From assembly GCF_050320075.1 (NCBI RefSeq), contig NZ_CP190018.1: a DNA stretch of 64,000 nucleotides; one strand, written 5' to 3'. This DNA is from Escherichia coli. Lineage in GTDB: Bacteria; Pseudomonadota; Gammaproteobacteria; Enterobacterales; Enterobacteriaceae. A program made the position numbers and the translations under genes. Positions 53,732-56,623 of the stretch are shown one piece after another (the first letter of the stretch is position 1; the number at the start of each line of letters is the position of its first letter). The notes under the pieces are model-generated. The model was not told where the DNA came from and searched no databases. It saw only the letters and a list, made by a program, of their open reading frames with translations.

Positions 53732-55414
53732 ATGAAGTCTGCATTAAAGAAAAGTGTCGTAAGTACCTCGATATCTTTGATACTGGCATCTGGTATGGCT
53801 GCATTTGCTGCTCATGCGGCAGATGATGTAAAGCTGAAAGCAACCAAAACAAACGTCGCTTTCTCAGACTTTACGCCGACTGAATACAGTACCAAAGGAA
53901 AGCCAAATATTATCGTACTGACCATGGATGATCTTGGTTATGGACAACTTCCTTTTGATAAGGGATCTTTTGACCCAAAAACAATGGAAAATCGTGAAGT
54001 TGTCGATACCTACAAAATAGGGATAGATAAAGCCATTGAAGCTGCACAAAAATCAACGCCGACGCTCCTTTCATTAATGGATGAAGGCGTACGTTTTACT
54101 AACGGCTATGTGGCGCACGGTGTTTCCGGCCCCTCCCGCGCCGCAATAATGACCGGTCGAGCGCCCGCCCGCTTTGGTGTCTATTCCAATACCGATGCTC
54201 AGGATGGTATTCCGCTAACAGAAACTTTCTTGCCTGAATTATTCCAGAATCATGGTTATTACACTGCAGCAGTAGGTAAATGGCACTTGTCAAAAATCAG
54301 TAATGTGCCAGTACCGGAAGATAAACAAACGCGTGACTATCATGACAACTTCACCACCTATTCTGCGGAAGAATGGCAACCTCAAAACCGTGGCTTTGAT
54401 TACTTTATGGGATTCCACGCTGCAGGAACGGCATATTACAACTCCCCTTCACTGTTCAAAAATCGTGAACGCGTCCCCGCAAAAGGTTATATCAGCGATC
54501 AGTTAACCGATGAGGCAATTGGCGTTGTTGATCGTGCCAAAACACTTGACCAGCCTTTTATGCTTTACCTGGCTTATAATGCTCCGCACCTGCCAAATGA
54601 TAATCCTGCACCGGAGCAATATCAGAAGCAATTTAATACCGGTAGTCAAACGGCAGATAACTACTACGCTTCCGTTTATTCTGTTGATCAGGGTGTAAAA
54701 CGCATTCTCGAACAACTGAAGAAAAACGGACAGTATGACAATACTATTATTCTCTTTACCTCCGATAATGGTGCGGTTATCGATGGTCCTCTGCCGCTGA
54801 ACGGGGCGCAAAAAGGCTATAAGAGTCAGACCTATCCTGGCGGTACTCACACCCCAATGTTTATGTGGTGGAAAGGAAAACTTCAACCCGGTAATTATGA
54901 CAAGCTGATTTCCGCAATGGATTTCTACCCGACAGCTCTTGATGCAGCCGATATCAGCATTCCAAAAGACCTTAAGCTGGATGGCGTTTCCTTGCTGCCC
55001 TGGTTGCAAGATAAGAAACAAGGCGAGCCACATAAAAATCTGACCTGGATAACCTCTTATTCTCACTGGTTTGATGAGGAAAATATTCCATTCTGGGATA
55101 ATTACCACAAATTTGTCCGTCATCAGTCAGACGATTACCCGCATAACCCCAACACCGAGGACTTAAGCCAATTCTCTTATACGGTGAGAAATAACGATTA
55201 TTCGCTAGTCTATACAGTAGAAAACAATCAGTTAGGTCTATACAAACTGACGGATCTACAGCAAAAAGATAACCTTGCCGCCGCCAATCCGCAGGTCGTT
55301 AAAGAGATGCAAGGCGTGGTAAGAGAGTTTATCGACAGCAGCCAACCACCGCTTAGCGAGGTAAATCAGGAGAAGTTTAACAATATCAAGAAAGCACTAA
55401 GCGAAGCGAAATAA
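53732..55414 (+). CDS. ydeN: Putative sulfatase YdeN
   Basis: About 560-aa protein with signal peptide and sulfatase fold; active-site region SGPSRAAIMTGR carries Ser at the formylglycine position; ORF track start 53699 is probably an extension. Confidence 0.85.
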   Translation: MKSALKKSVVSTSISLILASGMAAFAAHAADDVKLKATKTNVAFSDFTPTEYSTKGKPNIIVLTMDDLGYGQLPFDKGSFDPKTMENREVVDTYKIGIDKAIEAAQKSTPTLLSLMDEGVRFTNGYVAHGVSGPSRAAIMTGRAPARFGVYSNTDAQDGIPLTETFLPELFQNHGYYTAAVGKWHLSKISNVPVPEDKQTRDYHDNFTTYSAEEWQPQNRGFDYFMGFHAAGTAYYNSPSLFKNRERVPAKGYISDQLTDEAIGVVDRAKTLDQPFMLYLAYNAPHLPNDNPAPEQYQKQFNTGSQTADNYYASVYSVDQGVKRILEQLKKNGQYDNTIILFTSDNGAVIDGPLPLNGAQKGYKSQTYPGGTHTPMFMWWKGKLQPGNYDKLISAMDFYPTALDAADISIPKDLKLDGVSLLPWLQDKKQGEPHKNLTWITSYSHWFDEENIPFWDNYHKFVRHQSDDYPHNPNTEDLSQFSYTVRNNDYSLVYTVENNQLGLYKLTDLQQKDNLAAANPQVVKEMQGVVREFIDSSQPPLSEVNQEKFNNIKKALSEAK

Positions 55415-55465
55415 CTAAACCTTCATGCGGCGGATTTTTCCGCCGCCTTATTGAGCGAGATAGCG

Positions 55466-56623
55466 ATGCACGTTACAGCCAAGCCCTCCAGTTTTCAATG
55501 TAATCTCAAATGTGATTACTGTTTTTACCTTGAAAAAGAGTCGCAGTTTACTCATGAAAAATGGATGGATGACAGCACTCTGAAAGAGTTCATCAAACAA
55601 TATATCGCAGCGTCTGGCAATCAGGTCTATTTTACCTGGCAAGGCGGTGAACCCACTCTGGCTGGCCTGGATTTTTTCCGTAAAGTTATTCACTATCAAC
55701 AACGCTATGCAGGCCAAAAACGTATTTTTAATGCATTACAAACGAATGGCATTTTATTGAATAATGAATGGTGTGCCTTTCTCAAAGAACATGAGTTTCT
55801 GGTTGGTATCTCGATCGATGGACCCCAGGAGCTACATGACCGTTACAGACGCAGTAATTCTGGTAACGGTACTTTTGCAAAAGTGATAGCAGCCATCGAG
55901 CGTCTGAAATCATATCAAGTAGAGTTTAATACGTTAACCGTCATTAATAACGTTAATGTCCATTACCCTCTTGAGGTTTATCATTTTTTAAAATCTATCG
56001 GCAGTAAACATATGCAATTTATCGAATTGCTCGAAACCGGGACGCCGAATATTGATTTCAGTGGTCATAGTGAGAACACATTCCGTATCATTGATTTTTC
56101 TGTGCCTCCTACGGCTTATGGCAAGTTTATGTCGACCATTTTTATGCAATGGGTTAAAAACGATGTGGGTGAAATTTTCATCCGTCAGTTTGAAAGTTTT
56201 GTCAGCCGTTTTTTGGGGAATGGGCATACCAGTTGTATTTTCCAGGAGTCCTGCAAGGATAATCTGGTTGTTGAAAGTAATGGAGACATTTACGAATGCG
56301 ACCATTTTGTCTATCCACAGTACAAAATTGGAAACATTAATAAATCTGAACTTAAAACGATGAACAGTGTACAACTGACAGCGCAAAAAAAACGGATTTC
56401 AGCGAAATGTCAGCAATGTGCATATAAACCTATCTGCAATGGCGGTTGCCCTAAGCATCGTATTACTAAAGTAAACAATGAGACTGTTTCCTATTTTTGC
56501 GAAGGTTATAAAATCCTTTTTTCAACCATGGTACCTTATATGAACGCCATGGTGGAGTTAGCCAAGAACAGAGTACCGCTTTACCACATTATGGATGTTG
56601 CAAAACAAATGGAGAATAATTAA
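55466..56623 (+). CDS. ydeM: Anaerobic sulfatase-maturating enzyme homologue YdeM (radical SAM/SPASM)
   Basis: About 385-aa protein with CNLKCDYC radical-SAM motif and C-terminal Cys clusters; follows ydeN. Confidence 0.85.

Follow-up and report, generated by a model that had tools for sequence, protein, structure and literature searches.

A Ser-type sulfatase gene and an adjoining anaerobic sulfatase maturase gene at the ydeN–ydeM locus of Escherichia coli

Gene content of the locus

The window, i.e., the whole 64,000-nucleotide stretch of Escherichia coli DNA analyzed here, encodes ydeN and ydeM as two intact open reading frames on the + strand, at exactly the coordinates that a previous sequence-only reading had given for the pair:

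53732..55414, + strand: ydeN, from ATG 53732 to stop 55414; 560 aa; periplasmic S1 (formylglycine-dependent) sulfatase precursor
55466..56623, + strand: ydeM, from ATG 55466 to stop 56623; 385 aa; radical-SAM/SPASM anaerobic sulfatase-maturating enzyme

The DNA of this locus is 100% identical to that of annotated E. coli chromosomes, on which the RefSeq names are "sulfatase-like hydrolase/transferase" for ydeN and "anaerobic sulfatase maturase" for ydeM. The same genes are found in E. coli K-12 as b1498 and b1497, with equal lengths, an identical ydeN–ydeM spacer, and the gene order ydeP-safA-ydeO-ydeN-ydeM-yddA-yddB in common with the window. Relative to K-12, YdeN carries two substitutions (Y210F and E295D), YdeM carries one (S312P), and the ydeO–ydeN spacer differs by ~20 SNPs and a 1-nt indel. 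Since the K-12 annotation has both genes, the pair is already known, and its description as a sulfatase/maturase pairing can be traced by citation to the 1998–2006 literature, with the Ser-type/maturase logic going back to 1998. Three minus-strand ORFs within the genes (206, 132, and 89 aa) matched nothing in Pfam and are not considered genes.

A Ser-type active site in an exported sulfatase

YdeN matches the Pfam Sulfatase profile (PF00884) with 238.4 bits (cut-off 25, E 1.5e-70), in an alignment linking residues 58–408 to profile positions 1–301 of 301. The sequence-only reading had described a secreted sulfatase with Ser rather than Cys at the formylglycine position, and two features of YdeN bear directly on this description:

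53732..53818, + strand: predicted Sec-type signal peptide, aa 1–29, with predicted cleavage between AHA and AD; from hydropathy and manual reading
54125..54160, + strand: sulfatase signature I, S132-G-P-S-R-A-A-I-M-T-G-R, residues 132–143, with Ser132 as the formylglycine precursor

The active-site motif SGPSRAAIMTGR was thus recovered at residues 132–143 (nt 54125–54160), with Ser132 encoded by a TCC codon (54125–54127). S132-GPSRAAIMTGR is the sole [CS]xPxR site in YdeN, and it matches the signature I pattern (C/S)-x-P-x-R-x3-(L/M)-T-G-(R/K), given here in PROSITE style. When YdeN is aligned with the S1_19 sulfatases 9hh3 and 6bia, Ser132 falls in the column of the Cys of their CGPSR motif, which confirms a Ser at the formylglycine position. 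We also considered whether a Cys-type formylglycine motif could be located elsewhere in the protein, which is impossible as YdeN includes zero cysteines. Signature II (G-Y-x-T-x3-G-K-W-H) is present as G175-YYTAAVGKWH, along with all metal and catalytic motifs (MDDLGYG, GKWHL, NAPHLP, SDNG, and KGYKSQTYPGG), the ligand and catalytic residues being D66/D67, H286 in NAPHLP, D345/N346, and K361/K364 in KGYKSQTYPGG. Signature II and the metal-ligand and catalytic motifs also align in the PDB matches of YdeN. At the species level, a 72-nt query in which TGC replaced TCC was identical to none of 3609 matching E. coli genomes, a limited test of the Cys variant given that such a short query retrieved only about two thirds of genomes; the Ser version of this 72-mer was identical in 1753 E. 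coli genomes.

The N-terminus of YdeN displays basic residues (K2, K6, and K7) followed by a hydrophobic core at approximately residues 9–27, as judged by manual reading and hydropathy, and neither a twin arginine nor a lipobox Cys is present in this region. Signal-like N-terminal sequences also occur on YdeN orthologues. Combined with the PF00884 match, this predicted Sec-type signal peptide is consistent with a secreted sulfatase. Among NCBIfam models, YdeN falls under no named equivalog, with scores of 124 bits for the arylsulfatase model (cut-off 481) and 98 bits for choline sulfatase (cut-off 433).

A radical-SAM/SPASM maturase encoded downstream

Two sets of residues characterize YdeM, which had been proposed to be a radical-SAM/SPASM maturase homologue:

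55499..55522, + strand: radical-SAM cluster motif C12-x3-C16-x2-C19, from sequence motif and alignment
56234..56500, + strand: SPASM region, with C257, C263, C278, C315, C318, C324, C328, and C345 (auxiliary clusters) and Asp279

YdeM matches the Pfam Radical_SAM (E 1.8e-22) and SPASM (27.6 bits, cut-off 21.5) profiles, as well as TIGR03942, "anaerobic sulfatase maturase" (505 bits, cut-off 349.45), the latter across residues 2–364 and profile positions 1–362 of 363. Residues C12, C16, and C19 align with C15, C19, and C22 of 4K36, the GGE SAM-binding motif is conserved within QGGEPTL, and YdeM retains each of the 11 Fe–S cysteines of the solved Clostridium enzyme as well as its catalytic Asp. 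The combination of CX3CX2C, GGE, eight SPASM cysteines, and an Asp after C278 thus argues for the proposed maturase function. Given the profile scores of YdeN (PF00884) and YdeM (Radical_SAM, SPASM, and TIGR03942), both family assignments are far beyond chance, and family membership is settled by sequence-level matches with E-values of 1e-50 to 1e-150.

Upstream region, regulation, and hairpins

Around and between the two genes, the following elements were identified:

53379..53410, + strand: intrinsic terminator after ydeO, GGGGCAG/CTGCCCC stem then GCGTTGTTTTT; 8 pairs, 6 GC, T tract
53437..53452, unstranded: distal CRP site AGTGAcattcaTCACA, 1 mismatch to TGTGAN6TCACA, ~288 bp upstream of the ydeN ATG
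53651..53666, unstranded: putative proximal CRP-like site TGTGActaactTCACT, 1 mismatch to the CRP consensus
53665..53694, + strand: predicted ydeN sigma-70 promoter, -35 CTTACA, 18-nt spacer, -10 TAAAAT; 9/12 matches in a consensus scan only
53719..53724, + strand: Shine-Dalgarno AAGAGG, 7 nt before the ydeN ATG
55427..55446, + strand: terminator-like intercistronic hairpin GCGGCGGA-UUUU-UCCGCCGC then CUUAUUG, conserved as structure
56677..56702, + strand: hairpin CACCCGACA/TGTTGGGTG then TTTCGTC, downstream of ydeM, from sequence reading

Immediately upstream of ydeN and on the same strand lie ydeP, safA, and ydeO, with the terminator at 53379..53410 separating safA-ydeO from ydeN. The 402-bp ydeO–ydeN spacer includes two of the five CRP-consensus matches detected window-wide, for 1.78 expected per 64 kb. 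The K-12 equivalent of the distal site, TGTGAtggatgTCACT, is listed as a ydeN CRP site with an estimated Kd of 1.8 nM (PMC12871828), and CRP SELEX targets include ydeN (PMC3105977). The proximal CRP-like site overlaps the -35 element of the predicted ydeN promoter, which would correspond to a class II geometry. For AraC, a scan of 53330–53760 with the half-site TAGCN7TCCATA yielded three matches at ≥7/10, compared to 3.0 expected from the window-wide rate, and no canonical site. For FNR (TTGATN4ATCAA, ≤2 mismatches), 49 matches were obtained in the window vs 44.6 expected, with nothing convincing upstream of ydeN, and the sequence lends no support to anaerobic induction of this gene.

Published regulation of ydeN consists of CRP binding and of repression by AraC and GadX, with GadX binding lowering the ydeN transcript (PMC4918353). 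At neutral pH, ydeN is translated; at pH 4.4, it falls ~32-fold and ranks among the 20 most down-regulated genes (PMC10746267). Since a terminator follows ydeO, and since ydeN is repressed rather than induced in acid, ydeN is linked to the EvgA/YdeO acid genes by position alone: the location immediately downstream of these genes, to which the sequence-only reading had drawn attention, stands, but membership in the acid-resistance regulon does not.

The intercistronic hairpin includes nine pairs, of which seven display compensatory changes (six Enterobacterales), and this structurally conserved ydeN–ydeM hairpin is one small new detail of the locus. A minus-strand Rfam match to isrK over the same hairpin was sub-threshold (20 bits vs 50) and was dismissed as noise; nothing else was returned by the Rfam scan of 48000–62000 at E ≤ 1. 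The hairpin at 56677..56702, which the terminator scan did not call, is possibly a weak terminator of the ydeNM unit.

Conservation of the pair across genomes

We compared the locus to 15 other loci encoding a full-length YdeN homologue, which extend from Enterobacterales to Fusobacterium (genera Escherichia, Leminorella, Citrobacter, Cedecea, Mixta, Grimontia, Psychromonas, Anaerobiospirillum, and Fusobacterium), and to the identical E. coli reference locus (L001). SGPSR, i.e., the Ser version of the motif, was found in YdeN homologues from 15/15 of the other loci and in L001. In each of these 15 loci, the gene directly downstream of that for the YdeN homologue was on the same strand and encoded a YdeM homologue, and all 11 Cys and the Asp were invariant across YdeM homologues (15 other full-length and L001). 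This systematic adjacency of a Ser-type gene and a maturase gene substantiates the suggestion that the sulfatase–maturase pairing is coherent. In addition, YdeN and YdeM identities co-vary among loci (Spearman 0.82), and the genes flanking the pair differ in every genus. A unit that moves into unrelated contexts, and whose two proteins diverge together, points to a primary one-to-one YdeN–YdeM partnership.

The flanks themselves include nan-like genes in Mixta, a GH4 gene in Leminorella, and housekeeping genes elsewhere, and in Citrobacter an alkylsulfatase is encoded two genes from the pair. When searched for clues on the substrate, the neighborhoods of homologous loci provided no consistent hint.

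These patterns can be used to evaluate whether YdeN may instead belong to the phosphatase, phosphonate, or transferase type within the alkaline-phosphatase superfamily and rely on an unmodified Ser nucleophile, while YdeM modifies another target. The cautious RefSeq name of ydeN would fit such a function, as would weak matches to the PF01663 phosphodiesterase, LtaS, and YejM models. However, the LtaS and YejM scores are far under cut-offs (33 bits vs 970 and 21 vs 825, respectively), YdeN includes the full signature S-x-P-x-R-x3-M-T-G-R and the sulfate-binding Lys/His motifs, and the adjoining maturase gene was found in each of the 15 other full-length loci. YdeM, moreover, passes the anSME equivalog model and not the peptide-maturase models, and we regard an unmodified Ser nucleophile as extremely improbable.

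Both genes are under strong purifying selection, with dN/dS values of 0.014–0.053 for ydeN and ydeM alike, and a match to the locus was found in nearly all complete E. coli genomes (5394/5426). This selection and this retention, in ~98% of complete E. coli genomes, both stand against the locus being a cryptic relic, in which the genes would be intact yet unused by E. coli and YdeM would not mature YdeN in vivo. A relic would be in line with the AT-rich character of the region (39% G+C in ydeM and 27% in the spacer with the ydeN promoter), typical of silenced horizontally acquired DNA. Klebsiella AtsA is also said, in work by Szameit et al. dating from 1999, to be active in E. coli only with co-expressed AtsB. 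YdeN, finally, has no established substrate or phenotype (PMC10878103). On the other hand, at neutral pH the mRNA and ribosome footprints of ydeN reach levels that allow the 32-fold fall in acid (PMC10746267), ydeM is a fitness gene in a mouse cystitis TraDIS screen (PMC8767336), and an araC mutant has been reported to up-regulate ydeM in the mouse gut. Taken together, this makes a cryptic relic very unlikely.

Proposed maturation pathway

We consider it highly probable that ydeN–ydeM is a self-contained two-gene module encoding a Ser-type sulfatase and its radical-SAM maturase, based on gene structures, motif and ligand residues, the Ser132–Cys alignment, co-location across phyla, and purifying selection. 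In the sequence of events that we propose, ydeN would be transcribed from its own AT-rich promoter carrying CRP sites, and pre-YdeN would be made in the cytoplasm, with YdeM binding the S132-GPSR segment of the still-unfolded chain. SAM would be reductively cleaved by YdeM at the CX3CX2C [4Fe-4S] cluster, and the resulting 5'-deoxyadenosyl radical would abstract the C-beta hydrogen of Ser132. Asp279 would deprotonate the Ser132 hydroxyl while the electron would exit via the two SPASM [4Fe-4S] clusters, yielding C-alpha-formylglycine. Sec would then export the modified precursor, the 29-residue signal peptide would be removed, and in the periplasm the hydrated formylglycine and a divalent metal (D66, D67, D345, and N346) would hydrolyze the sulfate ester. 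The YdeM chemistry and the timing of maturation before export are transposed from anSME structure and mechanism (PMC7771511), by analogy.

Active Ser-type sulfatase has been obtained in E. coli without added maturase, and aslB is a second putative E. coli maturase (PMC8379841). Because of aslB, YdeM need not be the sole enzyme acting on YdeN. Conversely, YdeM may serve every E. coli sulfatase (AslA, YidJ, and YdeN) rather than being dedicated to YdeN. anSMEs are promiscuous, with substrate binding mainly via backbone contacts, and a single anSME serves all sulfatases of Bacteroides thetaiotaomicron (PMC7771511). Yet the pair moves as a unit into unrelated contexts, with co-varying protein divergences. 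A 2007 study by Benjdia et al. also reportedly concerns aslB and ydeM mutants, and its title indicates a third system acting in Cys-type maturation. A general role of YdeM is possible, if doubtful, and is compatible with the two-gene module rather than exclusive of it.

Candidate substrate and wider meaning

The best solved matches of YdeN are S1_19 carrageenan 4-O-sulfatases (6BIA, 6B0J, and 9HH3; Pseudoalteromonas and others), distant relatives aligned over YdeN 109–436 with E-values of 1e-50 to 4e-52, and the link of YdeN to S1_19 is one of best solved matches. A near-identical xGPSRAA(I/L)(M/L)TGR is found in YdeN and these enzymes, along with GKWH, YNAPH, and SDNG. In contrast to the Ser-type YdeN, the solved S1_19 relatives are Cys-type and were made with co-expressed FGE (PMC6923384); they also lack a ~30-residue segment (YdeN 76–108) conserved in the YdeN clade, and their setting is marine carrageenan loci. 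From these 4-O-sulfatase relatives and the CRP/AraC-type carbon regulation, we suggest with low confidence a sulfated sugar as the substrate of YdeN, one possibility being a galactose-4-sulfate-type ester of host or dietary glycans.

More broadly, ydeN–ydeM could represent a horizontally mobile, self-sufficient cassette, a tentative reading that is unlikely to hold in all its parts jointly. In the cassette, the gene of the Ser-type sulfatase may be followed by an intercistronic terminator that is leaky and then by the gene of a private maturase, and the whole may be common to gut-associated Gammaproteobacteria and Fusobacteria. It may act on host mucin, on fragments of glycosaminoglycans, or on carrageenan fragments from the diet, removing a specific sulfate that is perhaps 4-O-linked to galactose or N-acetylgalactosamine, and may be under catabolite (CRP) control and contribute to gut or bladder colonization. 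If this were true, the role of the conserved hairpin would be to keep sulfatase high relative to maturase.

Overall, the pair is ordinary and the sequence-only reading of the locus was correct, and as a discovery this carries little weight since the genes, the families, and the Ser-type/maturase logic are already part of standard E. coli annotation and literature. Its practical value comes from E. coli being the usual recombinant-sulfatase host, so that the locus bears on possible Ser-type maturation by YdeM or AslB in this host (PMC8379841), and ydeM turns up in gut-adaptation and urinary-tract fitness screens. Two handles are available for testing, namely an invariably Ser-type pair linked across phyla and an intercistronic hairpin conserved as structure.

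Comparison with known systems

Among characterized maturases, Clostridium perfringens anSMEcpe (PDB 4K36–4K39) aligns with YdeM residues 4–359 (E 4.9e-63), and the two enzymes have in common CX3CX2C, GGE, eight auxiliary-cluster Cys, and an Asp after the third SPASM Cys. However, anSMEcpe naturally acts on a Cys-type sulfatase whereas the neighbor of YdeM is Ser-type, and with the clostridial equivalog NF010321 YdeM scores 256 bits, under the cut-off of 441. AtsA and AtsB represent a characterized Ser-type sulfatase and its radical-SAM maturase, encoded in the order atsB-atsA, with AtsA being the arylsulfatase of the sulfate-starvation response. In Klebsiella pneumoniae, this periplasmic Ser-type S1 sulfatase is found beside an anSME-family maturase, and the predicted chemistry is that of YdeN–YdeM (PMC7771511). 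Unlike AtsA, YdeN has carbohydrate sulfatases as its nearest solved relatives and a promoter tied to CRP, AraC, and GadX. Finally, the Bacteroides thetaiotaomicron anSME is likewise a radical-SAM maturase enabling sulfatase activity in a gut bacterium (PMC7771511), but it operates one-to-many and is unlinked to any particular sulfatase gene, whereas ydeN–ydeM is a one-to-one adjacent cassette.

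The ydeN-ydeM locus in E. coli

The sequence-only reading had assigned 53732-56623 to ydeN and ydeM, and two plus-strand ORFs were indeed found there, on DNA identical to RefSeq-annotated records:

53732-55414, + strand: ydeN, ATG to stop, 560 aa
54125-54160, + strand: sulfatase motif S132-G-P-S-R-A-A-I-M-T-G-R, Ser codon TCC
55466-56623, + strand: ydeM, ATG to stop, 385 aa
56589-56711, - strand: yneP, small ORF of 40 aa (Pfam PF23696, E 2e-29)

Among 5426 complete E. coli genomes, 5394 contained a match to the 4.5-kb stretch around the pair (query 53000-57500, 4501 bp), 5316 of them with a query coverage of 80% or more, and several complete chromosomes were 100% identical to it. 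RefSeq names ydeN a "sulfatase-like hydrolase/transferase" and ydeM an "anaerobic sulfatase maturase", with ydeP-safA-ydeO upstream and yddA-yddB downstream; the pair is already known and annotated. K-12 MG1655 has the same gene order (b1501 to b1495) and an identical 51-nt ydeN-ydeM spacer, and differs by two residues in YdeN and one in YdeM. This agreement with annotated E. coli and with the K-12 locus indicates that the window is an ordinary E. coli chromosome segment to which the K-12 literature applies.

In one E. coli record (NZ_CM128548.1), an IS1A element lies inside the matched region, and the match comes in two pieces that span 5278 bp of the record (vs the 4501-bp query). A contig from a "Candidatus Nanosynbacter sp." MAG (JARKOR010000108.1) shares ~99–100% identity with E. 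coli ydeP-safA-ydeO-ydeN-ydeM-yddA-yddB, and is almost certainly E. coli sequence that was mis-binned into this MAG. The small gene yneP is antisense to ydeM and overlaps its final 35 nt; 5 of its 40 residues are changed relative to K-12 YneP, far above the divergence of neighbouring genes, and a plus-strand hairpin (56677-56702) falls within it.

A serine-type sulfatase and its predicted maturase

YdeN covers the entire Pfam Sulfatase profile (PF00884, E 1.5e-70) and matches both PROSITE-style sulfatase signatures, with none of the further catalytic or metal motifs missing (D66/D67, GKWH, NAPHLP, D345/N346, KGYK…GG). By manual reading, its N-terminus (MKSALKKSVVSTSISLILASGMAAFAAHA/ADD) is a predicted Sec signal peptide with neither twin arginine nor lipobox, consistent with the proposed secreted sulfatase. 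Its top matches among solved structures are S1_19 carrageenan 4-O-sulfatases (9hh2/9hh3, 6bia, and 6b0j; E 1e-50 to 4e-52), and YdeN "yvahgvSgpsraaimtgr" aligns on their "yvahpfCgpsraa(i/l)(l/m)tgr". This alignment on the Cys motif places Ser132 at the formylglycine-precursor position, as had been suggested. In an S1_19 enzyme, the homologous Cys is the proto-catalytic residue, and a Cys-to-Ser mutant served to trap substrate (PMC6923384). The Ser132 motif is the sole [CS]xPxR in YdeN, and a Cys-bearing formylglycine motif elsewhere, which would have contradicted the Ser-type assignment, is impossible because the protein contains no cysteine.

The radical-SAM/SPASM maturase assignment of ydeM was likewise borne out: YdeM scored 505 bits on TIGR03942 ("anaerobic sulfatase maturase", cut-off 349), and residues 4-359 align with the crystallised Clostridium perfringens anaerobic sulfatase-maturating enzyme (anSME) 4K36 (E 4.9e-63). 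C12/C16/C19 fall on its radical-SAM Cys triad, QGGEPTL is kept, the eight SPASM cysteines fall on the ligands of its two auxiliary clusters, and Asp279 adjoins C278 in this alignment. If YdeM follows the anSME family mechanism (PMC7771511), a 5'-deoxyadenosyl radical would take a hydrogen from the C-beta, deprotonation would follow, and an electron would leave via the auxiliary clusters.

Conservation of the pair across species

Scanning one genome per species for homologues gave 16 loci, one of which (first 131 sulfatase residues only) was left out of the full-length set. The remaining 15 span Escherichia, Leminorella, Citrobacter, Cedecea, Mixta, Grimontia, Psychromonas, Anaerobiospirillum, and Fusobacterium (identity 54–100%). 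A YdeM homologue lies directly downstream of the sulfatase on the same strand in 15/15, SGPSR with Ser is universal among these sulfatases, and all 15 maturases keep the 11 cluster cysteines and the Asp, so that the pairing is as coherent as initially proposed. Since the flanking genes vary between genera, the conserved unit consists of the ydeN and ydeM homologues alone. Divergences of sulfatase and maturase co-vary (Spearman 0.82). Three Escherichia comparisons gave dN/dS values of 0.014–0.053 for the two genes, evidence against disuse and decay of the locus.

In Escherichia albertii (6001-8891 of its locus), the pair lies in another context, where ydeO and yddA are absent and the downstream neighbour is a PLP decarboxylase gene, and dS relative to E. 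coli is saturated (1.4–2.0) although the proteins are 96% and 88% identical; such a pattern points to a cassette that was acquired separately or relocated. In Mixta theicola (379-5718), the pair is just 3' of ORFs resembling a sialic-acid (nan) cluster. Of these, Pfam supports a DHDPS-family lyase and an RpiR/SIS regulator and no others; the remaining ORFs were likened to NanT/NanE/NanK solely by size and N-terminal sequence. Citrobacter werkmanii (9754-11730) carries a type III (MBL-fold) alkylsulfatase two genes downstream. These last two contexts are one instance each and no consistent neighbourhood.

Transcriptional context

Signals flanking ydeN were as follows:

53379-53399 plus T tract, + strand: intrinsic terminator after ydeO (terminator scan)
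53437-53452: distal candidate CRP site, ydeO-ydeN spacer (consensus, at most 1 mismatch)
53651-53666: proximal candidate CRP site, ydeO-ydeN spacer (same threshold)
55427-55446, + strand: GC-rich hairpin followed by CUUAUUG, ydeN-ydeM spacer (55415-55465)

The 320 bp upstream of ydeN have 27% G+C. At up to one mismatch, the CRP consensus has five matches in the 64-kb window vs 1.78 expected, two of them within the 402-bp ydeO-ydeN spacer. The distal site is the counterpart of a high-affinity CRP site assigned to ydeN in vitro by a footprint-seq preprint (estimated Kd 1.8 nM; PMC12871828), and ydeN is a genomic-SELEX target of CRP (PMC3105977). Upstream of ydeN there is a single promoter-like match, whose -35 is overlapped by the proximal site; CRP might act there in class II geometry. 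Two spacer SNPs change ATCCA in K-12 to ATTCA here (53436-53446 and 53668-53676), the first within the 6-nt spacer of the distal site, the second immediately past the proximal site.

AraC binds upstream of ydeN with arabinose only (PMC3738151), and ydeMN is over-expressed in an araC mutant (PMC10878103). When GadX binds, less ydeN transcript is present (PMC4918353), and the 20 genes most strongly down-regulated at pH 4.4 include ydeN, together with malE, xylF, and treC (PMC10746267). Taken together, ydeN behaves like a carbon-catabolic gene shut off in acid, opposite to its upstream neighbours. The link to the EvgA/YdeO acid-resistance regulon invoked by the sequence-only reading holds as a position, downstream of ydeO, while the implied functional tie finds no support in the terminator after ydeO or in the GadX and pH 4.4 data.

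The ydeN-ydeM spacer hairpin (-18 to -21 kcal/mol, z = -2.0) has equivalents with other stem sequences at the same position in E. albertii, Leminorella, Citrobacter, Cedecea, and Mixta; across six Enterobacterales, RNAalifold recovered 9 pairs, 7 with compensatory double changes. Grimontia, Psychromonas, and Anaerobiospirillum have longer spacers with hairpins and T runs, and no hairpin was found in the Fusobacterium spacer. Most simply, the hairpin may be a leaky terminator or mRNA-end stabiliser, which would hold the catalytic maturase below the level of its sulfatase substrate.

Function and comparison with characterised sulfatases

In the literature examined, we found neither a documented YdeN substrate nor documentation of formylglycine formation on YdeN; substrates are said to be unreported (PMC10878103), and no NCBIfam equivalog for a named substrate reached cut-off. 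Hints come from a mouse cystitis TraDIS study that scored ydeM among the UTI89 fitness genes (PMC8767336), from the sulfonated azo dye FD&C Red No. 40, which significantly induced ydeN only among E. coli genes (PMC10653809), from a metagenomic Ser-type sulfatase active in E. coli without added maturase (PMC8379841), and from the specificity of relatives, none of them decisive. The S1_19 enzymes, nearest solved relatives of YdeN, target galactose-4-sulfate; unlike their structures, the YdeN clade carries a conserved segment of ~30 residues (76-108, including FDPKTMEN).
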